A stretch of DNA of 64,000 nt from Phycisphaerales bacterium (GCA_020427395.1 JAGQON010000006.1:42129-106128), one strand, 5' to 3'. Counted from the first letter of the stretch, positions 35,841 through 46,711 are shown. Translations and numbers: made by a program. Notes: generated from the sequence alone by a model not told the origin.

Positions 35841-35925
35841 CGCTGGGCGTATTTGATCCTTCGTCGATTCCCAAGATGCTTTTTCCACGGGGCTTATGAG
35901 CCGCCCGGCGTGCTACGATCTGGGC

Positions 35926-36951
35926 ATGTTTATCGATCGTGCACGCATTATGGTGTTCGCCGGCAAGGGCGGCGACGGGAAGGTCGCGTTCCGACGCGCC
36001 AAGGGGATGCCCAAGGGAGGCCCCAACGGCGGCGACGGGGGCAAGGGAGGCGATGTGATCCTGCGCGTCGATGAGGGGCTCAACACCCTTGTGGACTTCC
36101 GTGGCATCTATGAGTGGAAGGCCCAGGAGGGCGAGGGCGGCGGCAAGAAGCAGTGCACCGGCGGCGATGGCGACGACCTGGTCATCCGGGTGCCCGCGGG
36201 CACGGTGGTGTACAACGAAGAAACCGGCGAGGAGCTGGCGGACCTGGGACCGGGCGATTCGATGGTGATCGCCAAGGGCGGGCGGGGCGGCTTCGGCAAC
36301 GAGCATTTCAAGAACGCCGTCAACCAGACGCCCCGCAAGGCAACGCCGGGCGAGCCGGGCGAGGTGATCCCGCTGCAGCTCGAACTCAAGGTGATCGCGG
36401 AGGTCGGGCTGGTTGGGCTGCCCAACGCGGGTAAGAGCACCTTCCTCAAGTCGATGACGCGCGCGGACCCGAAGATCGCGGATTACCCGTTTACCACGCT
36501 CTCGCCGCAGCTGGGCATCGCGACGCTCGACGGTGCGCGGCGCCTGGTGATTGCGGACATCCCGGGTCTGATCGAGGGCGCTTCGAGCGGCGCGGGGCTG
36601 GGGCACGACTTCCTTCGTCATATCGAGCGGACGAAGGTGATCGTGCATGTGCTGGATGTTGAGCCGGATAATGGGCTCAGCGCGGCCAAGAACTACCGAG
36701 CGATCCGCGCGGAGCTGCGGGGGTACTCGTCGGAGTTGGCGGAGAAGCCCGAGCTGATCGCGCTCAACAAGATGGACCTCATGACCGACGAGGACCAGAA
36801 GGACGCGATGGACGCGATGCGGACCGAGCTGCAGCTCGACGCGGCGACGGAGATCTACCCGATCAGCGGCGCGACGGGTGTCGGGTGCGCGGCGTTGCTT
36901 GAGGCCGTGTACCGGATGCTGCATCGGGATCGGGTGGAGTCGGGGTGGTAG
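35926..36951 (+). CDS. obg: GTPase Obg/CgtA
   Basis: Motifs 'MFIDRARIMVFAGKGGDGKVAFRR', 'GGPNGGDGGKGGDV', 'VGLVGLPNAGKSTF', 'DIPGLIEGAS' and 'NKMDL'. Confidence 0.93.
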   Translation: MFIDRARIMVFAGKGGDGKVAFRRAKGMPKGGPNGGDGGKGGDVILRVDEGLNTLVDFRGIYEWKAQEGEGGGKKQCTGGDGDDLVIRVPAGTVVYNEETGEELADLGPGDSMVIAKGGRGGFGNEHFKNAVNQTPRKATPGEPGEVIPLQLELKVIAEVGLVGLPNAGKSTFLKSMTRADPKIADYPFTTLSPQLGIATLDGARRLVIADIPGLIEGASSGAGLGHDFLRHIERTKVIVHVLDVEPDNGLSAAKNYRAIRAELRGYSSELAEKPELIALNKMDLMTDEDQKDAMDAMRTELQLDAATEIYPISGATGVGCAALLEAVYRMLHRDRVESGW

Positions 36952-36960
36952 GGCCGCCCC

Positions 36961-37656
36961 ATGAGCACGAACACGCCATGGGATGACGAGTACACGCTGC
37001 TGTGCGAGAAGTGCGGGTATCGGCTTGAGGGTCTGGATACGGACGGCCTGTGCCCTGAGTGTGGGCTGGCGATCCGGGAGAGTTTTCCAGAGCGACGGCG
37101 CACATTCGAGTGGCTGGGTTACACGCGTCCGCGTGATCTGATCAGGATGGCGGAGATGACGCTGTTTCGTCCGGCGGAGTTGTTCGGGCACATGCGGATC
37201 GAAGAGGGCGTGAGTTCGGACCTGCGTTCGTACTGGTTTCTTGTCGCGATTGCATTGATAATGCTTGGATACATTGTCACTCCTGGTGACGATGTTTGGT
37301 GGTTCCGGGCTCTGATCTCACCTATCTTCATCGTGATTTATCTCTATATGTTGTTTTACAACTGGTTGGTTCGTGTGATGTTTGAGTTCATCGCGAGGCG
37401 CTGCGGCAAGCGCATGGATCGAGAGCTCGCGGGCACCATCACGAACTACGCCAGCTTTGCGTGGATTGGCTTTGCGATTGTGATTCTGGTTGTTTTCCCG
37501 GCCAAGGGCATCGCGGAAACGGGTGGGCATCTTCGGCTTGCTGAAGTCATTGAATGGATAGGTGCCTGTGGTATGCTCGCTGTAGTTGGTTACATGATCT
37601 TCCTGCTGGTGCTCGGCTGCAAGCACGCCGGCTATGCGAATCGGGTCAGGCGGTAA
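36961..37656 (+). CDS. membrane protein with N-terminal CxxC...CxxC zinc ribbon (tandem paralog 1)
   Basis: The N-terminus 'MSTNTPWDDEYTLLCEKCGYRLEGLDTDGLCPECGLAIRESFPERR' is followed by 4 TM helices. Confidence 0.65.
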   Translation: MSTNTPWDDEYTLLCEKCGYRLEGLDTDGLCPECGLAIRESFPERRRTFEWLGYTRPRDLIRMAEMTLFRPAELFGHMRIEEGVSSDLRSYWFLVAIALIMLGYIVTPGDDVWWFRALISPIFIVIYLYMLFYNWLVRVMFEFIARRCGKRMDRELAGTITNYASFAWIGFAIVILVVFPAKGIAETGGHLRLAEVIEWIGACGMLAVVGYMIFLLVLGCKHAGYANRVRR

Positions 37657-37659
37657 TGC

Positions 37660-38463
37660 ATGCGCACGAAGACGTCATGGGATGACGAGTACACGCTGCT
37701 GTGCGAGAACTGCGGGTATGTGATCGAGGGGCTGGACCCGGCGGGCAACTGCCCGGAGTGCGGCAAGACGATCGCGGAGAGTCTGCCGGAGCGTCGGGTG
37801 GGGACGCCGTGGCAGCAGTCGCCGGGTGTGTGGTCGCTGGTGCGGACCTGGTGGATGACGCTGCGGCATCCGCTGCGGACGCTGGATGTGATGCGGATCG
37901 ACGGGCACCAACGCAAGTCGCTGTGGGATTGGACGATCACACTCATTATTCTGCTCCCTGTCCCGGTTTGCCTGTTTGGCATCTTCGAGCTCGGACAGGG
38001 CATGCAATTGAATCAGGGCATACGCACACACGGTGTGCCTGGTGCGTGGACATTCACACCGGGATACTTCTTTGTGATGATACCTGTGCTCACCGCTACC
38101 GAAGCACTCGGTCTCCGAGTGATTGCGCGACAACGAGGATTCCGAGTACCACGAGACATATCAAAGACAATCACCGCACATGGTGCGGTCGGTTGGCTTG
38201 CAATGAGCACGGGGTTGACCCTGAGCTTCATTTACATCGCCATTCCGATCGCCCTGCACGGCAACCCCGATGGAGCGTTTGACTCAAGGCTACGCGGGCT
38301 CATCATGTGGGCATGGCCGATGATCGGGTTCAGCTTCCTCTTCGGCTTCCTCTTCTTCGAGACCTTCGCCTACCTCGGCCTCCGCCGCTGCAAGTTCGCC
38401 AACCGCGTGCGTCCGGAATCCCCATCGCAGGGTGCCACTACTCGCGTCGAAGACGCGCAGTAG
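37660..38463 (+). CDS. membrane protein with N-terminal CxxC...CxxC zinc ribbon (tandem paralog 2)
   Basis: The N-terminus 'MRTKTSWDDEYTLLCENCGYVIEGLDPAGNCPECGKTIAESLPERR' is followed by TM helices. The last 11 codons lie inside palindromic repeat family A. Confidence 0.65.
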   Translation: MRTKTSWDDEYTLLCENCGYVIEGLDPAGNCPECGKTIAESLPERRVGTPWQQSPGVWSLVRTWWMTLRHPLRTLDVMRIDGHQRKSLWDWTITLIILLPVPVCLFGIFELGQGMQLNQGIRTHGVPGAWTFTPGYFFVMIPVLTATEALGLRVIARQRGFRVPRDISKTITAHGAVGWLAMSTGLTLSFIYIAIPIALHGNPDGAFDSRLRGLIMWAWPMIGFSFLFGFLFFETFAYLGLRRCKFANRVRPESPSQGATTRVEDAQ

Positions 38464-38521
38464 TGTCTTCCGAACTTCCTCAGAGCACTACTGCGCCGCT
38501 TTGCGTCGAGTAGTGGCACCC
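38431..38521. repeat. palindromic repeat family A (GGTGCCACTACTCGC ... GCGCAGTAGTG ... CACTACTGCGC ... GAGTAGTGGCACC)
   Basis: A long imperfect hairpin of about 90 bp. It overlaps the stop of the zinc-ribbon gene at 38463 and precedes ispG. Confidence 0.75.
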
Positions 38522-38588
38522 GGATCTCAGAATCGAAACACCCGACGAACCAACCACCAAATCCACCCGTACGACCTAGAATCTTCCG

Positions 38589-39899
38589 ATGAAGCCCAGA
38601 AACCCAACTCGGCCTATTTTCGTCGGCGATGAACGCACCGGGATCGTCCAGATCGGGGGCGGGATTGCGCCGGATCATGCCCTGGCCAAGGGTCTGAGTG
38701 GCCCCACGCAGCCCGCGCCGGTGAGCGTGCAGACGATGACGGCGGGGTACACGCACGATATCGACAAATGCGTGGCGGAGATCCACAAGCTGACGGCCGC
38801 GGGCGCGGACATCGTGCGGGTGGCGGTGCCCGAGAAGAAGGACACCGAGGCGCTGGGCGAGATCATCAGCCAGACGAGTGTGCCGATCGTCGCGGATGTG
38901 CACTTCCACTTCAAGCGGGCGCTGGAAGCGATCGAGGCGGGTGTGCACAAGATCCGCCTGAACCCCGGCAACATCAACGACCGCAAGCAGGTCGAGGCCG
39001 TGATTGATGCGTGCAAGGATCGGGGTATCCCGATCCGTGTGGGCGTCAACGAGGGCTCGATCATCGAGCGCAAGGACAAGCAGGCGCGGGCCAAGGAGCT
39101 GGGCGCGGTCTTCAGCGACCAGAAGCACGGCTACATGCTCTCAATCATGATCGCCAAGCTCGAGGAGTACCTCGACATCTTCTACGAGCGCGATTTCTAC
39201 GACATCGCCATCAGCGCCAAGTCGATGGACGCGACGGTGGTGATCGACGCCTACACCGAGATCGCCAAGCGTTTCCCTCACCCGCTGCACCTGGGCGTGA
39301 CCCACGCGGGACCGAAAGAAACAGGCTGCATCCGCTCGGTCGTCGCGCTGGGCTCGCTGCTGAGCCAGGGCATCGGCGACACGATCCGGATCAGCTACGC
39401 CAACGACCCGATCTACGAGGTCGAGGACGGGCTGGAGCTGCTGTACTCGCTGGGCCTGCGCGAGCGGATCGGCGCGGAGCTGATCGCGTGCCCGACCTGC
39501 GGGCGCATCCAGGTGGACCTGTTCTCGCTCGTGCAGGAGGTGAACAAGAAGCTGGAGGACGAGATCGAGGTCCCGATGAAGGTCGCGGTGATGGGGTGCG
39601 TGGTGAACGGCCCCGGCGAGGCCGAGGGGGCGGATGTGGCCGTGTTCGCGGGCGATCGCAAGGGCATTATCTATGTTCAGGGCGAGAAGGTCGCGACGGT
39701 CGGCGAGGAGGAGATCCTCGATCGCTTGCTGAGCGAGTGCAAGGCCTTCCAGGACAAGGTCCGCCGCGGCGAGGCGAAGCTGGGCGAGAAGAAGGTAGAC
39801 ATCGTGCCGCCCGATCCGATGGGCGAGCTGGGCAGCGGCTGGGAGAAGATGGCGGCGGCGCGGATGGGGCACACCGAGCTGACGATCGAGGGGCGTTGA
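38589..39899 (+). CDS. ispG: 4-hydroxy-3-methylbut-2-en-1-yl diphosphate synthase (flavodoxin)
   Basis: Motifs 'VQTMT', 'AGADIVRVAVP', 'VPIVADVHFHFKRALEA', 'IRLNPGNI', 'IRVGVNEGS', 'ACPTCGR' and 'GCVVNGPGE'. Confidence 0.93.
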   Translation: MKPRNPTRPIFVGDERTGIVQIGGGIAPDHALAKGLSGPTQPAPVSVQTMTAGYTHDIDKCVAEIHKLTAAGADIVRVAVPEKKDTEALGEIISQTSVPIVADVHFHFKRALEAIEAGVHKIRLNPGNINDRKQVEAVIDACKDRGIPIRVGVNEGSIIERKDKQARAKELGAVFSDQKHGYMLSIMIAKLEEYLDIFYERDFYDIAISAKSMDATVVIDAYTEIAKRFPHPLHLGVTHAGPKETGCIRSVVALGSLLSQGIGDTIRISYANDPIYEVEDGLELLYSLGLRERIGAELIACPTCGRIQVDLFSLVQEVNKKLEDEIEVPMKVAVMGCVVNGPGEAEGADVAVFAGDRKGIIYVQGEKVATVGEEEILDRLLSECKAFQDKVRRGEAKLGEKKVDIVPPDPMGELGSGWEKMAAARMGHTELTIEGR

Positions 39900-39916
39900 G
39901 GGACTACACTGTGGGC

Positions 39917-40171
39917 ATGAACGAAGCGGCGCAGCAGTACACGATCGGATCGAGGGTGCGGGTCACCCAGACGCTCTCGCACGGCGAGGACCTCTCGGCC
40001 TTCGTGGTCGAGGGCGAGATCCTTCGCATGGGTCAGCAGAAGACCGGTTCGTGGTACGCTCACGCCCGCGACAAGAAGCTCTGGCTCGACCGCCTCGAGC
40101 TCCGCAAGGACGATGGCGAGATCGTGGTGATGAACCTCGATCAGCGCTCGACGGTCGAGGTCATCGACTGA
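39917..40171 (+). CDS. small hypothetical protein (84 aa)
   Basis: ATG 18 nt after the ispG stop, with normal composition ('YTIGSRVRVTQTLSHGEDLSAFVVEGEILRMG'), followed by a clean intrinsic terminator. It is the only credible part of the 386-aa track ORF 39011..40171. Confidence 0.55.
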   Translation: MNEAAQQYTIGSRVRVTQTLSHGEDLSAFVVEGEILRMGQQKTGSWYAHARDKKLWLDRLELRKDDGEIVVMNLDQRSTVEVID

Positions 40172-40197
40172 GCGTCGGCTAAGATTGTGGCTGGATG

Positions 40198-40222
40198 ACC
40201 CGGGCTTTGGCTCGGGTTTTTT
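40198..40222 (+). terminator. intrinsic terminator after the 84-aa gene downstream of ispG
   Basis: An 8-bp stem ACCCGGGC/GCTCGGGT (one G-U pair) has a TTTG loop and is followed by TTTTTT. Confidence 0.65.
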
Positions 40223-40232
40223 CATGCGCGTA

Positions 40233-40255
40233 GTGACCGGGTTTGTGCGCACAAA
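40233..40255. promoter_or_regulatory. operator-like site 1: GTGACCGGG-TTTGTGCGCACAAA (perfect 14-bp palindrome)
   Basis: TTTGTGCGCACAAA at 40242..40255 is its own reverse complement. The site repeats 114 bp downstream. Confidence 0.45.
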
Positions 40256-40346
40256 GTGGTCGCGAAGTGCGCGCTGTTTGAGATTTTGAAACATTTTTTT
40301 ATCGCGTTGCGGCGCGGGGGGTTATCGCTGCGCGGGTGGTGTTGGA

Positions 40347-40369
40347 GTGACGGGGTTTGTGCGCACAGA
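40347..40369. promoter_or_regulatory. operator-like site 2: GTGACGGGG-TTTGTGCGCACAGA
   Basis: It matches site 1 at 21 of 23 positions. An AT-rich stretch (TTTGAGATTTTGAAACATTTTTTTATC) separates the two sites. It lies directly upstream of the portal gene. Confidence 0.45.
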
Positions 40370-40440
40370 TCGTGTCGGGGCGGGGTCTGGTGAGGGCGTG
40401 CGACATGTGGGACACGCCGGGTGTGGAGGAGGGACGCTTG

Positions 40441-41964
40441 ATGACGGGCCAGCTCATGACAAATGACGGGGACGCGAAACACGATTGGTTGCGGGCGAGG
40501 GAGGCGATCGCGGCGCATGCGCGCCGGGCGCTCCCACGCTACGACAAGCTCTGGGCGTACTACCGCAATCCGATTGAGCTGGTCCGTGCATCGGGCGGTG
40601 CGGTTGGGGTCGGTGGCTCGGCAAGGGGCTGGTACCGCTCGGCCCAGGAGGTCGGGCTGCCGGCGCGGATCGTCGGGTATGGTTCGGCGCTGGGAGCCGT
40701 CGGTGATGAGCGCGGCAGGCGCGAGGTCGTGATCGAGAACGACATCGGGTGGCGCGTGGCGGCGATGGTGGACTTCATGTTCGGCTCGCCGATCCGGATC
40801 GAATCGCTGGCCGAGGACGAGGCGACACGCGAGCGGATCGAGGAAGTGCTCGAACGGGTGTGGGAGGCGAGCGGCGGGATCGCGCTGCTGCAGGACATGG
40901 CGACGCTGGGGCATGTCTTCGGGCATGTGGATCTGCTGGTGCGCATTGATGAGCAGGGGCTGATTGGTTCGCGCCTGCCTCATGCCGAACGATGGATCTC
41001 GATCGAACCGATCGATGCACGCCGGGGCGTGGCGGTGCTGAGCGAGCGCGACTACCGCGAGATCGAGCTGTACGCGCTACACATCGGCAGCGTGAATGAA
41101 GACGGGAATATGCAGGGGCGTGAGCCGGCGCGGGGTGGTTGGCTGGACCGCCTGCGCAGCGAGCGCAAGGCCAAGCGCATCTGCACAGACGCGGCCACCA
41201 AGGGCGTGAGCGAGGTAATCACCGCCTCGGGCTGGTCGCGCGTGGTCGATGGCGAGGTGAGCGCGACGGGCGCGTGGTCGCTGCTGCCCGGCGTGCTGCC
41301 GGTCGTGCATGTGCAGAACATGAGCCAGCCGTTCGTGTACGAGGGGATCGGCGAGGTCGAGGGGCTGGTGGGCCTGCAGGACGAGCTGAACACGCGCCTG
41401 AGCGATCGCGCCAGCCGCGTGACGCTGCAGAGCTTCAAGATGTACCTCGCCAAGGGGATCGACGGCTTCCGCGGGAGCAGCGTGGGCCCGGGCATGGTCT
41501 GGAGCACGGACAACCCGGACGCGAGCATCAGCAGCTTCGGCGGCGACGCGAGCAGCCCGAGCGAGGATGCGCACATCGGTGAGATCCGCGAGGCGATGGA
41601 CAAGATCAGCGGCGTGCCGCCTGTCGCCGGCGGTGTGGTGCGGGCCAAGCTGGGCAACCTGAGCAGCGCCAACGCGCTGCGGATCACGCTCATGAGTCTC
41701 ATCGCCAAGACCATGCGCAAGCGGGTGACCTATGGGCGCGGCATCGAGCGAGCGAGCGGGCTCGTGCTCGACTACCTCAACGCGGCGGGCGTGCTCAAGA
41801 CGGACGCGCGGGATCGCGGCGTGCGGGTGGTGTGGGGTCCGCTGCCGGTGGTGGATGAGGAATCAATCGTGGCCGCGGGTCGGGCGAAGGTGGAGCTTGG
41901 TGTCGACGAGCAGCGTGTGCTCGATGAGCTGGGCTACGGCGATGCCGACCCGGGCGTGGTCTGA
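40441..41964 (+). CDS. probable phage portal protein
   Basis: About 507 aa, placed immediately upstream of a coiled-coil scaffold-like gene and an HK97-fold-type capsid gene, with the N-terminal 'LPRYDKLWAYYRNP' region typical of portal N-termini. Start chosen after GGAGGA; ATG 40405 is an alternative. Confidence 0.55.
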   Translation: MTGQLMTNDGDAKHDWLRAREAIAAHARRALPRYDKLWAYYRNPIELVRASGGAVGVGGSARGWYRSAQEVGLPARIVGYGSALGAVGDERGRREVVIENDIGWRVAAMVDFMFGSPIRIESLAEDEATRERIEEVLERVWEASGGIALLQDMATLGHVFGHVDLLVRIDEQGLIGSRLPHAERWISIEPIDARRGVAVLSERDYREIELYALHIGSVNEDGNMQGREPARGGWLDRLRSERKAKRICTDAATKGVSEVITASGWSRVVDGEVSATGAWSLLPGVLPVVHVQNMSQPFVYEGIGEVEGLVGLQDELNTRLSDRASRVTLQSFKMYLAKGIDGFRGSSVGPGMVWSTDNPDASISSFGGDASSPSEDAHIGEIREAMDKISGVPPVAGGVVRAKLGNLSSANALRITLMSLIAKTMRKRVTYGRGIERASGLVLDYLNAAGVLKTDARDRGVRVVWGPLPVVDEESIVAAGRAKVELGVDEQRVLDELGYGDADPGVV

Positions 41965-41981
41965 ACACAAAGGAGGAAGCG

Positions 41982-42494
41982 ATGGCAAAGACGGGCGCGG
42001 GTGGCGCGGACAACCTGGACGGCGGCGGCGCGGCATCGGTTGATGCGGGCGCGGTGCAGGTGAACGAGGAAGTGATCTGGAAGGCGCGGGCAGAGCAGGC
42101 GGAGGAGGAGGTGGAGCAGCTGCAAGCGAAGATCGCGGAGCTGGAGTCGGCGTTGGGCACGGCGCAGCAGACGATCACGCAGGTCGAGCGGCGCGGGGAG
42201 ATCGATCGGGAGCTGACGGCCGCCAAGGCCGTTGACCTGGAGACGGCGCGACTGCTCACGGAGGCGGTGATCGCGGAGATGGATGAGCCGGATGTGGTGC
42301 TTGCGGTGCGTGAGCTGTGCGATCGCAAGCCGTTCCTGTTCGGGTGCGGGCGACAAGGCCCGGGCGGCGTGTCGATGTCGCCGGCGACTGGCGTGAGCGA
42401 AGGCGAAGCGCTGCGCGAGATGGCGCAGCACGCGCGGAGCAGCGGGGATCGCAGCGAGCTGCTGCGGTACCTGCGGGCGCGTCGGGTCGGTTGA
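41982..42494 (+). CDS. probable phage scaffolding protein
   Basis: 170 aa with an AAAGGAGGAA SD and an acidic coiled-coil 'QAEEEVEQLQAKIAELESALGTAQQTITQ'. Its position between portal and capsid supports the call. Confidence 0.5.
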   Translation: MAKTGAGGADNLDGGGAASVDAGAVQVNEEVIWKARAEQAEEEVEQLQAKIAELESALGTAQQTITQVERRGEIDRELTAAKAVDLETARLLTEAVIAEMDEPDVVLAVRELCDRKPFLFGCGRQGPGGVSMSPATGVSEGEALREMAQHARSSGDRSELLRYLRARRVG

Positions 42495-42544
42495 AGCGTG
42501 TTGGTTGTTTGGTTGAGTCAGGTATGAACAGAGGAGGATGACGC

Positions 42545-43720
42545 ATGGCGTTTACGGGGAAGGCGAGTTTTTCGGCGGGTTCGGGGCTGCCCGAGCTGGT
42601 GGAGGATGTGAGCGACATCATCGGGATCGTGAGCCCGCATGAGACGCCGCTGCTGGATCACCTGGGTGATGCGAAGCGGGCGGCGATGTCGACGGTGCAC
42701 GAGTGGATCGAGGATGCGATGCTGCCCAACAGCGGGCAGATCAACCAGAGCAGCTTCTCGCCCGGGCCGACCACGGCGACGACGATCACGGTCGACGACG
42801 CGGGCGTGTTCCGCGAGGGCGACCTGATCCGTCCGGGGCAGAGCGGCGAGGTGGCGCTGGTGGTCGCGGTGGTGACGGGCTCGAGCCAAATCGCGATCGT
42901 GCGTGGGTACGGCGGCACGAGTGCGGCCACGCTCGCGGACGACATGAAGCTGACGATCATCGGCAACGCGGCGCTCGAAGGCGATGTCGCGCCCGAGGCG
43001 CGGTTCACGAACCGTGTCCGCAAGAGCAACTACACGCAGATCTTCACGGCGGGGATCGATGTGTCGGGTTCGATGCAGGCCAGCCGGGCGTACGGCGTGG
43101 CGGATGAGGTGGACTACCAGAAGCAGGAGCGGATGCGTGAGCTGCTGCGCGACCTGGAGAACTGCGTGATCAACGGCGTCGCGCCAACCAGCAGCCCGCA
43201 GGGCAGCTCGACGGTACGCCGATCGATGAACGGGCTGCTGCACTCGATGCAGACCAACCTGTTCGAGCCCGGCACGGGCCCGATCCCGGACGGCGACGGG
43301 GCGGGCAGCGATCTGCTCAACGAGGCGGTGCTCAACGCGGCGCTCAAGTCGATCTGGGAGAACAGCAGCGGCAGCGTGGACACGATCGTGGTGGGCGGCG
43401 GGCAGAAGCGCCGGATCAACGGCTTCGCGACGGGCAGCCGCGCATACCTGCCGGACGACCAGGTCTATTCGGACATGATCAGCGTGTACGAGAGCGACTT
43501 CGGCGTGTGCCGCGTGCTGCTCAGCCGCTGGGTGCCCAGCGACAAGGTGCTGCTGCTGGATTCGTCCCGGATCAGCGTGATGCCGATGCAGGGTCGCAGC
43601 TTCCATTACAAGCCGCTCGCGGCGACGGGCGACTCGATCAGCGGGCAGGTGATCGGCGAGTACACGCTGGAGTTCAAGAACGAGAACGCGCACGGCGTAA
43701 TCTCGGGGCTGGGCGTGTGA
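42545..43720 (+). CDS. phage major capsid protein (SU10/DUF5309-like)
   Basis: 391 aa with a GAGGAGGA SD. The N-terminal 'LVEDVSDIIGIVSPHETPLLDHLGDAKRAAMSTVHEWIEDAML' matches my recollection of the DUF5309/SU10 capsid signature (..sP.eTP....lg....a.st.heW.eD.L). A strong terminator follows. Confidence 0.65.
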   Translation: MAFTGKASFSAGSGLPELVEDVSDIIGIVSPHETPLLDHLGDAKRAAMSTVHEWIEDAMLPNSGQINQSSFSPGPTTATTITVDDAGVFREGDLIRPGQSGEVALVVAVVTGSSQIAIVRGYGGTSAATLADDMKLTIIGNAALEGDVAPEARFTNRVRKSNYTQIFTAGIDVSGSMQASRAYGVADEVDYQKQERMRELLRDLENCVINGVAPTSSPQGSSTVRRSMNGLLHSMQTNLFEPGTGPIPDGDGAGSDLLNEAVLNAALKSIWENSSGSVDTIVVGGGQKRRINGFATGSRAYLPDDQVYSDMISVYESDFGVCRVLLSRWVPSDKVLLLDSSRISVMPMQGRSFHYKPLAATGDSISGQVIGEYTLEFKNENAHGVISGLGV

Positions 43721-43721
43721 T

Positions 43722-43792
43722 CTGTTCGCCTCCCCCACGCTTGCGGGGGAGGTGGGCCGACGCAGTCGGCTCGGAGGGGGTCTTCAGAGAAT
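43722..43792. repeat. palindromic repeat family B, single unit
   Basis: The unit CTGTTCGCCTCCCCCACGCTTGCGGGGGAGGTGGGCCGACGCAGTCGGCTCGGAGGGGGTCTTCAGAGAA shares the GGGGAGGTG, CGACGCAG and GGAGGGGTCTTC(C)AGAGAA blocks with the 35.7-kb copy. Confidence 0.65.
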
Positions 43793-43852
43793 CAGACCGG
43801 CTCAACAGCCGATCATCAAACGCGGGGTTTCAGCGGGGGCGCTGGGGCTCGC

Positions 43853-43890
43853 GGCCCGGGCGGGAGGGGTGCCCGCCCGGGCCTTTTGGT
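43853..43890 (+). terminator. strong intrinsic terminator downstream of the major capsid gene
   Basis: A perfect 12-bp GC stem GGCCCGGGCGGG/CCCGCCCGGGCC has a 7-nt loop and is followed by TTTTGGTT. Confidence 0.7.
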
Positions 43891-43916
43891 TGAGGCACAA
43901 GCGAAAAGGAGAAGCC

Positions 43917-44552
43917 ATGTTTTCAAGGGATCGGGATCTGGTCGTGCACGAGCCGGGGCTCATGCGGGATGTGGGATGGGCAGGGCAGCGGCGGTTGTCG
44001 GTGCTGGGGAGCGTGAGCGGCACGCAGCTGACGCTGAATAGCGGCTCGTTCATCGATGCTGGCGTGGAGGCCGGGCATGTGGCGGTGTTCGATGATGTCA
44101 CGCTGGAGATCGTGGGCGTGGACAGCGCGACGACGTCCACGGTCAGTCTCATGCGTGGCGACATCGCGGGCGCGGCCGTGCCACCGTTCGCGGCCAGCAA
44201 CCGCAGCGTGGTGGTCTACGACTTCGCTGCGCAGCGGGCGATCGTGCACCGCCAGGTGCTCACCATGCTGGGGATCGACGATGGCGAAGAGCAGGTGTTC
44301 GGCGTGAACGAGTCGATGGTCACCAACCCGCGGGCGCTCACACGCCTGGAGGCGCTGGGCACGCTGCATCTGATCTACGCGGGCGCTTCGGCACCATCAC
44401 GCGGGAGCGGTCGGTTTGAGCAGCGGGCCGAGCTGTATCGGCAAAGGTATCAGCGCGAGCGCGAGTCGGTGGTGGTGGCGATCGACACGGACGGCGACGG
44501 CATCGCGGAGGCGACGCGTCGTCCCAACGCCTTTGTGCTGAGCAGGGGGTGA
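43917..44552 (+). CDS. phage-module hypothetical protein (211 aa; possible head completion/connector)
   Basis: ATG after AAAGGAGAAG and tightly packed with the following genes. The function is inferred from position only. Confidence 0.5.
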   Translation: MFSRDRDLVVHEPGLMRDVGWAGQRRLSVLGSVSGTQLTLNSGSFIDAGVEAGHVAVFDDVTLEIVGVDSATTSTVSLMRGDIAGAAVPPFAASNRSVVVYDFAAQRAIVHRQVLTMLGIDDGEEQVFGVNESMVTNPRALTRLEALGTLHLIYAGASAPSRGSGRFEQRAELYRQRYQRERESVVVAIDTDGDGIAEATRRPNAFVLSRG

Positions 44553-44555
44553 TGC

Positions 44556-44954
44556 ATGATTGTGCTCCGACCGGATGAGGTGCGGTTCGATGGGCAGCCT
44601 TGGGGCGGCGTGGTGCGGGTGTCGATCGATCGGCTCTCGGCCCGCACCATCGAGGGCTACGGCGAGGAGGGCGCGTTCGCAACGCTCGTGGATGTATCGC
44701 GCCAGCGGATCGTACTGCGCGTGACGCAGGAGATCGTGGGCGATGATCTCAACGACCCGGCGCTGGGAACGCTGGGCGAGTTGGAACTGGTTGCGGGGAG
44801 CGGGAGCGACGCGGGTCGCCGCCGGGTGCGCTGCGACTGCGTGGTGGAGTCGGTGGTGAATCGCATCAGCGACTACGGGGCAACGCGGAGCGTGACGCTG
44901 ATCGCCCAGAGCGAGGGCGGCGATGAGGACCCGGTGCGGGTGACCGCGCTGTAA
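44556..44954 (+). CDS. phage-module hypothetical protein (132 aa)
   Basis: It starts 4 nt after the previous stop and has host-like codon usage. I recognised no family. Confidence 0.5.
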   Translation: MIVLRPDEVRFDGQPWGGVVRVSIDRLSARTIEGYGEEGAFATLVDVSRQRIVLRVTQEIVGDDLNDPALGTLGELELVAGSGSDAGRRRVRCDCVVESVVNRISDYGATRSVTLIAQSEGGDEDPVRVTAL

Positions 44955-44967
44955 AGGAGGGTGCGTG

Positions 44968-45348
44968 ATGGGGAGTTCGTTCAAGGGTGATGATCTGTTC
45001 GGGAGCGGGCCGCATGTGTTCGCGGTTGGGCGACAGGGCCGGCGGGTGGTGTCCTACAGCGCGGCCACGGGTGATCCGAGCATCGAGGGCTCGTTCGAGT
45101 CGGGTGATTACGAGGTGCGCGTGAGCGTGAAGGGGCAACTGGTGGCGAGCACGGAGAGCGGGCTGTGGGCGCTGCGCGATGCGATCGTCGCGGAGGCGGG
45201 CTTCGGGGTCAGCGCCGGCGACCTGATCGATCACCACGGGCGGGTGTTCGCCGGGGTGAAGCTGCTGAGCGTGGAGTGGGACGGGTCGATCGAGCGGGGG
45301 CGGGTGCTGAGCATCGGCTACGAGTGTGTCTTTGGCGAGACGGATTGA
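44968..45348 (+). CDS. phage-module hypothetical protein (126 aa)
   Basis: The ATG follows AAAGGAGGG. I recognised no family. Confidence 0.5.
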   Translation: MGSSFKGDDLFGSGPHVFAVGRQGRRVVSYSAATGDPSIEGSFESGDYEVRVSVKGQLVASTESGLWALRDAIVAEAGFGVSAGDLIDHHGRVFAGVKLLSVEWDGSIERGRVLSIGYECVFGETD

Positions 45349-45353
45349 GGTGG

Positions 45354-45629
45354 ATGATGGATACCGAGGTAATGGGGGCGCTGACGCAGTTCGGGGTGGC
45401 GGGGCTGGTGTGCTGGATGTGGCTGGTCGAACGCCGGGCATCGGCGGATCGCGAACGCCAGATCAGCGAGACCCACCGGGCGCTGATGGAGCAGCGGGAC
45501 GAGCGGGAGGGGCTGGTCTCGGTCGTCCGCGACAACACCCGGGCGATGACGGCCATCGAGCTGGGGCAGCGGGAACTCGTCGGTGCCATCGAGCGTTTGG
45601 GGCACACGAGCGATCGGCGTGCGTCGTGA
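45354..45629 (+). CDS. small membrane protein, N-terminal TM helix plus coiled coil (91 aa)
   Basis: The TM 'MGALTQFGVAGLVCWMWLV' is followed by the charged helical 'ERRASADRERQISETHRALMEQRDEREG'. It starts 6 nt after the previous stop. Confidence 0.5.
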   Translation: MMDTEVMGALTQFGVAGLVCWMWLVERRASADRERQISETHRALMEQRDEREGLVSVVRDNTRAMTAIELGQRELVGAIERLGHTSDRRAS

Positions 45630-45653
45630 GCACTTGGGCGCATACGATTGGGC

Positions 45654-46190
45654 ATGGCATCGCGATCGCGATTCATCCTGGCTTCAGTGTGCGGCGTCGG
45701 TCTCGGATCGATGCTGGGGTGCCAGGGCTCCATCATCTTCCAGGAGCAGGTGGTCCGCACCGACGACCTGCTCGCGGTGCCCGGTCCCTTCCGCCCGTCG
45801 GCGATGCGGGTGCACCCGCTGACCCACACCGAGCTTCGTGTCGATGGCGAGCCGGTGATGGTGCTGCATGTCGAGCTCAAGGACCCCTGGGGCGACACTG
45901 TCAAGGGCGTCGGGCAGGTGCAGGTGCAGCTGCGCAAGGCGACCGAGACCAGCACGATCGGCGACCCCGGCACGCGCTGGGACATCGACCTGCGCGACAT
46001 CGAGACCAATGTCTCCTACTTCGACTCGGCCACGCGGACCTACCGAATCGTGCTCGGCGGTTTGCCGGGCTGGCTCGACCAGTCCGTGCGTGACGGCTCC
46101 CCCGACGCGTCCCGCGTACGCGTGCTCTTCCGCACCGCCAAGGCGGACGGCGAGCCGGTGGTGCTGCAGGACGAGTTTGTGATGCGGTGA
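45654..46190 (+). CDS. lipoprotein, function unknown
   Basis: 'MASRSRFILASVCGVGLGSMLGC' lipobox. It is the last gene of the co-oriented phage-like block. Confidence 0.6.
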   Translation: MASRSRFILASVCGVGLGSMLGCQGSIIFQEQVVRTDDLLAVPGPFRPSAMRVHPLTHTELRVDGEPVMVLHVELKDPWGDTVKGVGQVQVQLRKATETSTIGDPGTRWDIDLRDIETNVSYFDSATRTYRIVLGGLPGWLDQSVRDGSPDASRVRVLFRTAKADGEPVVLQDEFVMR

Positions 46191-46201
46191 GTCAATGGTT
46201 A

Positions 46202-46711
46202 CTACGGAGCCACCTGTCTAAAGATGTACTTCGCAAGGCGTTCTATGTGAGTGTTAAGTGGGAGGAGCGGGATGAAGCCACCACCAAATGGTGCCCCGCA
46301 ATACGCAGCCAGCGTGTACATCACTTTGGACAAATGAAGGTAGTCATCGATGTTGCACTTACGCTGCATTGCGGCCTCGCCTAGAAGGCCGACCGCAAGC
46401 AATCGAGCACAAGCTTCTAGCCGCACTTCATCGTTTCCAAATGAGTTCTTGTTTAGATTCGGGGGGTCAGCGGCTTGACAACTAGCGAGAGTCTCATCAC
46501 ACCCAAAGGCGATCAGGTGCCAATCCAGCTTGTCTGAGCCTGGTTGTTTGATCGCCATCATGAGATGTTGAGGCGCTACTCCCTCAAAATCTCTGCCACC
46601 AAGTAAAAGCAGGTGCTCAATGACATCAGTCAAGGACACCCGCTTCGTGAAGACCTCGAAGACCTCGTTGATGAGATCGGTCATGATTGGCTCGAGAGAT
46701 GTATCAGTCAT
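46202..46711 (-). CDS. hypothetical protein (AT-richer orphan)
   Basis: 169-aa ORF whose ATG overlaps the stop of the upstream amidohydrolase gene by 8 nt. It is clearly lower in GC than both flanks. I recognised no family. Confidence 0.5.
   Translation of the reverse strand: MTDTSLEPIMTDLINEVFEVFTKRVSLTDVIEHLLLLGGRDFEGVAPQHLMMAIKQPGSDKLDWHLIAFGCDETLASCQAADPPNLNKNSFGNDEVRLEACARLLAVGLLGEAAMQRKCNIDDYLHLSKVMYTLAAYCGAPFGGGFIPLLPLNTHIERLAKYIFRQVAP

Follow-up and report, generated by a model that had tools for sequence, protein, structure and literature searches.

A Domesticated, Phage-Derived Particle-Assembly Module, Probably Reduced by Tail Loss, in Phycisphaerales Chromosomes

Introduction

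Why would a bacterial chromosome keep the genes of a phage portal and capsid within housekeeping DNA, with no terminase, tail, lysin, or integrase gene beside them? The question is raised by a stretch of 64,000 nucleotides from a Phycisphaerales bacterium (GCA_020427395.1 JAGQON010000006.1:42129-106128; the whole stretch is referred to as the window), in which eight open reading frames (ORFs), g1 to g8, form a module at 40441–46190, all on the plus strand and all intact. An original prediction, made from the DNA alone, had described eight co-oriented intact genes and had proposed a domesticated capsid-forming unit, tail-less or dependent on genes elsewhere, of a kind undescribed in this lineage. 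All eight ORFs were recovered where that prediction had placed them, and the proposal is supported by the finding of an intact, clade-wide, and selected block. Likewise, no description of a system of this kind in Planctomycetota was found in the searchable full-text literature, where mentions of gene transfer agents (GTAs) concern Alphaproteobacteria. The module is phage-derived and comprises a portal, a scaffold, an HK97-type capsid protein of the SU10 family, three proteins in the neck position (g4, g5, and g6), and an envelope pair (g7 and g8). It is resident in the chromosomes of marine Phycisphaerales, clade-wide, vertically inherited, and under purifying selection, and it is very probably a functional, domesticated capsid-forming module derived by tail loss.

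Portal, Scaffold, and Capsid Proteins

The identity of the module is carried by two proteins. The 507-aa product of g1 (40441–41964, + strand) matches the portal family PF05133 (SPP1_portal) at E 1e-13 (51.5 bits against a cutoff of 25.5) and the portal PHROGs phrog_104 and phrog_64 at E 6e-14. The 391-aa product of g3 (42545–43720, + strand) matches PF17236 (SU10_MCP) at E 1e-86 (291.5 bits against a cutoff of 24.1) over residues 11–389, and phrog_1328 at E 8e-75, and is thus a major capsid protein of the SU10/DUF5309 type. The original prediction had called the first protein portal-like and had seen the SU10/DUF5309 capsid signature in the second, and it had staked itself on the outcome of a Pfam profile check of both; the two identities hold. 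Between them lies g2 (41982–42494, + strand), which encodes a scaffolding-like, acidic coiled-coil protein of 170 aa with a weak match to PF06810 (Phage_scaffold; E 2.5e-5, under the Pfam cutoff) and to the head scaffolding family phrog_194 (E 0.0065); the gene is positioned between portal and capsid in every locus.

The other five proteins, g4 to g8, have no significant family match in Pfam or PHROGs. When both databases were searched with 136 orthologues of these five proteins and of an 84-aa protein encoded upstream of the module (sm83), only weak matches were returned, all of which are attributed to g7.

Distribution, Vertical Descent, and Selection

Relatives of the capsid protein were sought among 5.8 billion proteins, and more than 120 clusters at 75–99% identity were obtained, nearly all of them 389–392 aa in length. 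The clusters with a named source derive from Phycisphaerales or Phycisphaerae metagenome-assembled genomes, many of them on megabase contigs. When GTDB was scanned with one genome for each species, a close capsid relative proved to be encoded in at least 168 genomes, and the best 80 of these 168 (67–88% capsid identity) all belong to Phycisphaerales, Phycisphaeraceae, Phycisphaerae, or unclassified Planctomycetota. Every window protein was searched by tblastn against related loci, of which L001–L083 are the 83 Phycisphaerales loci; the eight genes are colinear and near constant in length in at least 80 loci. Of the 65 loci roomy enough for the whole block, 51 yielded all eight genes, and the genes that were missed are the fastest-evolving small ones in the most distant genomes. 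The right flank, consisting of amidohydrolase genes and a phosphofructokinase (PFK) gene, is common to most loci. No broken, frameshifted, or pseudogenised copy of the module was seen in the at least 80 species.

The module has diverged together with its hosts. Co-divergence was computed on Phycisphaerales-type loci as the Spearman correlation between identity to the window protein and identity of PFK (n = 37–41); the identities of capsid, portal, g4, and g8 track that of PFK with rho values of 0.92–0.95, as is expected under vertical descent. Portal identity ranges from 44 to 81% over 75 loci. Furthermore, dN/dS, calculated for nine genes by the Nei-Gojobori method in twelve genome pairs, lies between 0.02 and 0.47 for every gene; the values for the capsid (0.02–0.18) are the lowest of all genes tested, those for the portal are 0.05–0.23, and those for g5 are 0.07–0.47. 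The original prediction had held that the block does not look like a freshly decaying prophage and had asked for a comparison of synteny and dN/dS. The block proves to be colinear across species rather than strain-specific, and the intact copies in at least 80 species, with dN/dS well below 1 for every gene, agree with that view.

Viral sequence collections contain nothing close to the module. Among 2.9 million IMG/VR contigs there is no close relative of the window capsid, scans of IMG/VR with capsid and g4 profiles returned no close viral relative, and the nearest capsid of a cultured phage, that of Sporosarcina phage Lietuvens, is 32% identical. The sole IMG/VR contig with the module (L111/L118; IMGVR_UViG_3300031673_016560) carries a long-form cluster, as described below, amid genes for Mrr, YgjP, type I restriction–modification, radical-SAM proteins, and spore photoproduct lyase; because of the Mrr, restriction–modification, radical-SAM, and lyase genes on its flanks, this contig is probably cellular and listed as viral owing to its capsid genes, and it was therefore rejected as a viral contig.

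Proteins in the Neck Position

Three genes follow the capsid gene in the position of a phage neck. The third of these, g6 (44965–45348, + strand), encodes 127 aa, for which an AlphaFold2 model (pLDDT 86.1) predicts a tail-tube fold, i.e., a beta-sandwich with a helix, of neck, terminator, or tail-completion type. All 50 of the top 50 Foldseek matches of this model in the PDB are tube-fold proteins of phage tails, baseplates, and necks. The best are hub domains of Milano, 7-7-1, and Mu (E 4e-4 to 1e-3, best 3.7e-4; TMq 0.56–0.64), and further matches include the neck chain 6toa_G of RcGTA, the T4 gp15 terminator, SPP1 Dit, and the tubes of PVC and pyocins. Judged by its modeled fold, g6 is a neck-type ring protein, and the matches are spread over tube, terminator, Dit, hub, and neck proteins without fixing a sub-role among them. 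Because g6 has this predicted fold, the module is to be regarded as a head plus a neck, and the "head-only" label of the original prediction is not sustained.

The 211-aa product of g4 (43917–44552, + strand) is a lineage-restricted structural protein; its homologues, 144 proteins without a Pfam domain, are confined to this lineage, and its gene lies 3′ of the capsid gene in all outgroup loci. Its AlphaFold2 model (pLDDT 90.7) combines helices at the N-terminus with a beta domain of 80 residues, three long helices, and a C-terminus in extended conformation, and the beta domain resembles the N-terminal domains of tailspikes and fibres in BFVD. The model has no significant match in the PDB. Below the threshold, the adaptor protein of phage SU10 (7z47_A) ranks third (E 0.2, TM 0.19), and the adaptors of GP4 (8jov_G) and Kp7 (7y22_M) appear at E 1–2. 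The SU10 adaptor is encoded in the equivalent post-capsid position, which g4 fits in both position and size; an hhalign comparison of g4 with the SU10 adaptor was negative. In addition, the C-terminal part of g4 (44460–44510, residues ~181–200) carries a conserved EF-hand-like motif, D-x-D-G-D-G, with a weak match to a polcalcin calcium loop (E 0.04). Apart from this motif, nothing was returned when profiles of g4, g5, and g6 were compared with PDB sequences.

The remaining protein, g5 (132 aa, 44556–44954, + strand), is predicted to be beta-rich and is placed in the neck by its position. Its homologue in the long forms is cluster c31; g5 has no match in Pfam, PHROGs, or the PDB and no detectable relative outside its family, and an hhalign comparison with g6 was negative.

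The Envelope Pair

The block is closed by a transmembrane (TM)-plus-coiled-coil protein and a lipoprotein, as the original prediction had read it. The first, g7 (91 aa, 45354–45629, + strand, with its start at 45354), has one N-terminal TM helix followed by a coiled coil and carries the conserved motif TQFGVAGLxxWMWLxERR. The second, g8 (about 178–180 aa, 45648–46190, + strand), starts at a TTG at 45648 or possibly at an alternative ATG at 45654; nearly all of its orthologues have a lipoprotein signal peptide, with a conserved lipobox cysteine and the motif PGPFxP..MRIxPLT. The weak matches of the pooled PHROG scan (alignment A5) comprise the unannotated phrog_32121 in 15 members, bacteriocin-immunity PHROGs, and the Rz-like spanin family phrog_89 in 5 members (best E 0.0023); g7 orthologues are taken as their source, since g7 of the window matches the same unannotated and bacteriocin-immunity families. 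Compared with spanins of the Rz/Rz1 type, the pair fits in architecture and gene order, and the phrog_89 matches are weak. By contrast, the charge of g7 suggests an N-out orientation, g8 is large (~155 mature residues), and no holin or endolysin is encoded nearby. In other forms of the cluster, analogous genes are found at this place: a TM-coiled-coil protein, c13, ends the cluster and a lipoprotein, c25, comes after c13.

Origin From a Longer Cluster

A profile search of 1.84 billion cluster representatives showed that the Phycisphaerales capsids collapse to one cluster, the next relatives being 36–55% identical. When these relatives were used as queries, IMG/VR returned real phages, e.g., a 41-kb contig (L091) with a capsid ~50% identical and genes for the large terminase subunit (TerL), RecT, an exonuclease, methylases, and a resolvase. 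This places the capsid lineage genuinely among the viruses. In metagenomes, such capsids were found on at least 417 contigs, whose GC contents are 0.44–0.69 and several of which are 90–365 kb long. The order portal, scaffold, capsid, g4 is identical in all outgroup loci.

Different forms of the cluster were defined by hidden Markov models of the window genes and by clustering of all ORFs. Among the 23 outgroup loci that extend 9 kb or more downstream, at least 20 have a longer cluster after g4. Its order is g4; c30 and g5 in some loci; g6; c8 (~258 aa); c10 (~262 aa); a protein of ~550–590 aa; c18; c11; c12 (~610 aa); c20; the TM-coiled-coil protein c13; and the lipoprotein c25. Such long forms in Phycisphaerae-type metagenome clusters (L130, L136, L145, L155, and L178, among others) share with the window module the order portal, scaffold, capsid, g4, g5 (in a subset), and g6, and they differ from it by ~7 kb of extra DNA between g6 and the membrane pair (c8, c10, the fibre gene, c18, c11, c12, and c20) and, in some, by the extra neck gene c30. 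At their end, the TM-coiled-coil protein is homologous to g7 in L136 and L155 and is the analogous c13 elsewhere, with the c25 lipoprotein next to it in many loci. Among 73 ORFs of five long-form loci, PHROG matches to a head protein, head decoration, and a minor tail protein were obtained, and two members match the GP4 podophage fibre family PF23140 (gp80) at E 7e-36; PDB profile searches with c8, c10, and c12 were negative. The c18 proteins of the long-form loci (e.g., L178:14053–14511 and L163:15206–15682) have a common C-terminus, KAVQTKSTGVIxYYDDDGxTVILTHTP, and unrelated N-terminal halves, a pattern typical of exchangeable receptor-binding or fibre-adaptor proteins.

The relationship between the forms is most readily seen in two loci of high GC content, L136 and L155, in which c30, g5, and g6 are followed by c8–c20 and then by g7 of the Phycisphaerales type. 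From this gene order, the window form corresponds to the long form minus c30 and the ~7-kb c8–c20 block, and neither c30 nor any gene of that block was detected in the window or at the 83 Phycisphaerales loci. Intermediate and shorter states also occur: g4 is followed directly by g7 in L119, L120, and L127, and by c13 and c25 in L121, L122, and L138. A six-gene core, consisting of portal, scaffold, capsid, g4, the TM-coiled-coil protein, and the lipoprotein, is present in every form. These gene orders identify the window module as a tail-deleted derivative of a longer conserved cluster of head, neck, and tail-like genes.

The original prediction had also remarked on the lack of terminase, tail, lysin, and integrase genes alongside the module, and none of these families was found among ~30 large ORFs scanned in the 64-kb window; phage replication, integration, and lysogeny families were likewise missing from the scanned window ORFs and from the called genes of L001–L003. 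In family members, TerL occurs near the cluster only in the closely related loci L161 (195–1070) and L163 (2131–3699), ~4 kb upstream of the portal, with a PfkB kinase and other genes in between, and it is related to TerL of the viral contigs L093 and L106. No TerL of the L163 type is present in the window or in the 83 Phycisphaerales loci. A further TerL candidate, L146:1076–2512, was tested and rejected.

Control Elements and Non-Coding Features

Upstream of the portal gene lies a candidate control region (40242–40369, + strand) that is conserved across loci. It contains the palindrome TTTGTGCGCACA(A/G)A twice, at 40242–40255 and 40356–40369, ~113 bp apart; the two 14-bp copies are TTTGTGCGCACAAA and TTTGTGCGCACAGA, and an AT-rich stretch (40276–40303) lies between them. 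All 14 aligned loci have an unchanged GTGCGCAC core at both sites. Of the 115 occurrences of TGTGCGCAC in 1.43 Mb of sequence from related loci, 108 are placed no more than 330 bp upstream of a portal gene, and the motif is found nowhere else in the 64-kb window. The pair is specific to the Phycisphaerales-type clade: the motif occurs in only two of 42 outgroup loci, and the GTGCGCAC operator pair is missing from the long-form relatives. The palindromes are best regarded as a putative operator pair to which a dedicated regulator would bind.

Just 5′ of the portal Shine-Dalgarno sequence there is a hairpin (40395–40418, GGCGTG...CACGCC), and hairpins with other sequences are found at the same place in the distant loci L037, L057, L064, L046, and L072. 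For this pre-portal leader, RNAalifold gave no consensus structure, shuffling z-scores were weak (mean −0.57), and Rfam returned no match. A second non-coding region, the spacer 3′ of the capsid gene (43727–43887, + strand), was found by a hairpin scan to contain a hairpin at 43727–43753 and then a terminator-like hairpin of 12 GC pairs with a T-run at 43853–43887. A spacer between capsid and g4 is present in 77 of 77 loci (median 132 nt), and a hairpin with a T-run was detected in it in 8 of the 77 by a crude scan; the terminator is thus not generally conserved. In the window, the terminator-like hairpin could act as an attenuator that sets a high ratio of capsid to neck expression.

Proposed Mechanism and Alternative Explanations

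As a whole, the locus is best explained as a phage-derived particle-assembly module that has been domesticated and reduced by tail loss and that works by the following mechanism, an account to which we give somewhat less than an even chance. Briefly, the operon would be switched on via the paired palindromic operators upstream of the portal gene; scaffold and portal would nucleate capsid assembly; a short neck or plug would be formed by g4, g5, and g6 stacked on the portal; the resulting particle would be a capsid without a tail, which a terminase encoded at another genomic site would fill; and the g7/g8 pair would handle the particle at the cell envelope, in release or in docking. Within this account, it is somewhat doubtful that the particle is truly tail-less and works without tail genes elsewhere.

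Several observations weigh against the account. No large terminase was found in the window as a whole or, for the 83 Phycisphaerales loci, at distances of up to 10 kb from the module, so that DNA packaging is without local support. The protein g5 is without an assignable fold, and g4 is possibly a portal adaptor, a role suggested by position and architecture in its model, since its PDB matches are sub-threshold and the hhalign comparison is negative. Finally, the tail-like genes and the terminase may have moved to another locus.

This last point leads to the strongest alternative, a GTA-like system with a split locus, in which c8–c20 and a terminase have been relocated and complete short-tailed particles package and deliver host DNA. 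Accessory genes of RcGTA are located at separate loci, most related lineages have the long form with its tail-like block, and TerL is also unlinked in most long-form loci, L161 and L163 being the only ones with it near the cluster; moreover, a tube-fold neck protein, of a kind that normally contacts tail parts, is kept under selection in the module. However, homologues of c8, c10, c11, c12, c18, and c20 were found neither in the window nor in the 1.4 Mb that surround the module in the 83 Phycisphaerales genomes, and in other lineages even g5 and g6 have been lost independently with the core still in place; real loss of tail function therefore fits better than repeated relocation. A split locus is unlikely, and the reduced, domesticated module is preferred to it.

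The same repeated losses can be read in another way. The six-gene core may be a self-sufficient, tail-free machine, in which a portal-bearing capsid at the envelope serves DNA export, uptake, sequestration, or another non-infective use and from which tails were repeatedly lost as dispensable; we consider this improbable.

Alternatively, the module might act as a head factory of the satellite type that depends on a helper, as capsid-forming phage-inducible chromosomal islands (cf-PICIs) do; terminase and tails would then come from an infecting phage, and the outcome would be the spread of host DNA or sabotage of the phage. The content of the module, i.e., only head and neck genes, including a protein of tail-interface type, with no terminase or tail of its own, would suit such a role, and real phages with related capsids exist, e.g., L091 (~50%; TerL, RecT, and methylases). 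Nevertheless, the module has no integrase, att sites, replication genes, or small terminase; it occupies a fixed chromosomal site and co-diverges with host genes in at least 168 species, it has no close relative among the 2.9 million viral contigs, and it descends from a cluster with tail-like genes of its own. Of GTA-like, satellite-like, and compartment roles, that of a satellite is the least consistent with vertical inheritance at a fixed site, and as an explanation of the locus it is decidedly improbable.

The shell might instead have been re-purposed without any transfer of nucleic acid, as a storage or reaction compartment or as a defence decoy, with portal and neck serving merely as assembly nucleators. 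The lack of a nearby terminase would then be expected, as would the repeated loss of tail and neck genes while portal, scaffold, capsid, g4, and the membrane pair were kept. However, the strong conservation of portal and neck is hard to explain without passage or sealing of DNA, the operon has no cargo-like gene, and the HK97-fold compartments known to us, the encapsulins, have no portal, which leaves a compartment very improbable. An ordinary, functionless prophage remnant, suggested by the clear phage origin and the lack of terminase, tail, lysis, and integration genes, is extremely improbable and already contradicted by the data, i.e., near-constant lengths with no broken copy in at least 80 species, eight genes in 51 of the 65 complete loci, dN/dS of 0.02–0.47 for all genes, capsid conservation equal to that of PFK, and conserved cis-elements upstream.

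Neighbouring Genes

Within the module, a GGAGG-type Shine-Dalgarno sequence precedes seven of the eight genes; the strong ribosome-binding sites of the original prediction are thus real for these seven, and g8 is without one. The GC content is 0.65–0.685 within the module, at the upper end of the window range, compared with ~0.63 around it. In the window, the left flank encodes Obg and IspG and the right flank two amidohydrolases and PFK, all of them housekeeping proteins; a Pfam scan of the ~30 other large ORFs identified these amidohydrolase and PFK families as well as KAS, polyphosphate kinase, sulfate permease, an AddA-type helicase-nuclease, ATP synthase gamma, LpxI, FtsJ, and RibBA. A terminase or tail block adjoining the module, which the original prediction had named as refuting it, appears neither in the window nor in the 83 Phycisphaerales loci.

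The left flank had been described as ispG plus a terminator. The ispG gene is indeed there, and an intervening 84-aa gene (sm83, 39917–40171, + strand) that had been missed sits between it and the module and owns the terminator (40197–40218). In most related genomes, this gene is the immediate upstream neighbour of the module, with 49–91% identity and dN/dS of 0.05–0.34, and its product has no family match; in other genomes in which insertions separate it from the portal gene, it remains with the upstream phosphoglucomutase gene. The left flank elsewhere consists of that phosphoglucomutase gene, and the arrangement of Obg, two membrane proteins, and IspG (window 35896–40171) is found beside the module in none of the 83 loci, which indicates a local rearrangement in the window lineage. 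Two tandem paralogous genes in this region (36961–37656 and 37660–38463, + strand) encode proteins that begin with a zinc-ribbon (CxxC...CPxC; weak DUF7129 match) and continue with several TM helices; in L079, a protein resembling them is located between sm83 and the portal gene.

On the right, an AT-richer orphan gene followed by amidohydrolases had been noted, and this arrangement was confirmed. The orphan ORF (46202–46711, − strand, 169 aa) lies between g8 and the amidohydrolase gene, has no family match, and has weak relatives (30–35%) in three of 83 loci; it is a strain-level insertion outside the module.

Comparison With Known Systems

The most suitable reading of the module is that of a reduced form of a domesticated, GTA-like particle system. 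Like RcGTA of Rhodobacter capsulatus and other viriforms, it is a chromosomally fixed, phage-derived cluster with clade-wide vertical inheritance and purifying selection; it is without replication and integration genes and is presumably under host control, and the g6 model matches RcGTA neck chains among others. Unlike GTAs, its genes belong to an unrelated lineage (SU10-type capsid and SPP1-type portal), no terminase is encoded in or near the cluster, tail-like genes are missing, and the cluster ends in a TM-coiled-coil and lipoprotein pair. Set against the features by which GTAs are recognised, the module thus shows the evolutionary signature and the absence of a replication module, and it has neither a local terminase nor a local tail.

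Like cf-PICIs and other head-encoding satellites, the module encodes head and head-completion proteins and no tail. Satellites are mobile elements with integrase, att sites, a replicon, and a small terminase and are patchy in distribution, whereas the module has none of these four features, is found at a single site, and co-diverges with its host. Compared with podophages of the SU10 (Kuravirus) and GP4 types, it has the same order of portal, scaffold, capsid, and a ~200–250-aa protein in the adaptor position, along with an SU10_MCP capsid, and the long-form relatives share the GP4 gp80-like fibre gene with GP4-type podophages. By contrast, its capsid is at most 32% identical to that of any cultured phage, g4 has no sequence similarity to the SU10 adaptor, nozzle, fibre, and internal-protein genes are missing, and no TerL gene lies upstream of the portal gene. 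With encapsulins, the module shares an HK97-fold shell protein encoded in the host chromosome. Encapsulins use cargo-targeting peptides and have no portal, scaffold, or neck proteins, whereas conserved genes for all three are found in the module.

Significance

A conserved locus that has neither tail nor terminase but an invariant membrane pair is unusual among domesticated phage particle systems. To our knowledge, DNA-carrying domesticated phage particles are known from few lineages, namely the alphaproteobacterial GTAs, VSH-1 of Brachyspira, Dd1 of Desulfovibrio, and VTA of Methanococcus. If the proposed account is true, the module would represent an independently derived family of domesticated particles in Planctomycetota, in the class Phycisphaerae, whose members are abundant in ocean and sediments and for which almost no genetic tools exist. 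The module-specific operator pair points to a dedicated regulator and provides a handle for finding it. The locus raises the question of what use a cell may have for a portal-bearing capsid without a tail or a linked terminase, and the long, intermediate, and short forms of the cluster constitute a natural reduction series, which would show which parts of a phage particle cells keep after the tail has been lost.

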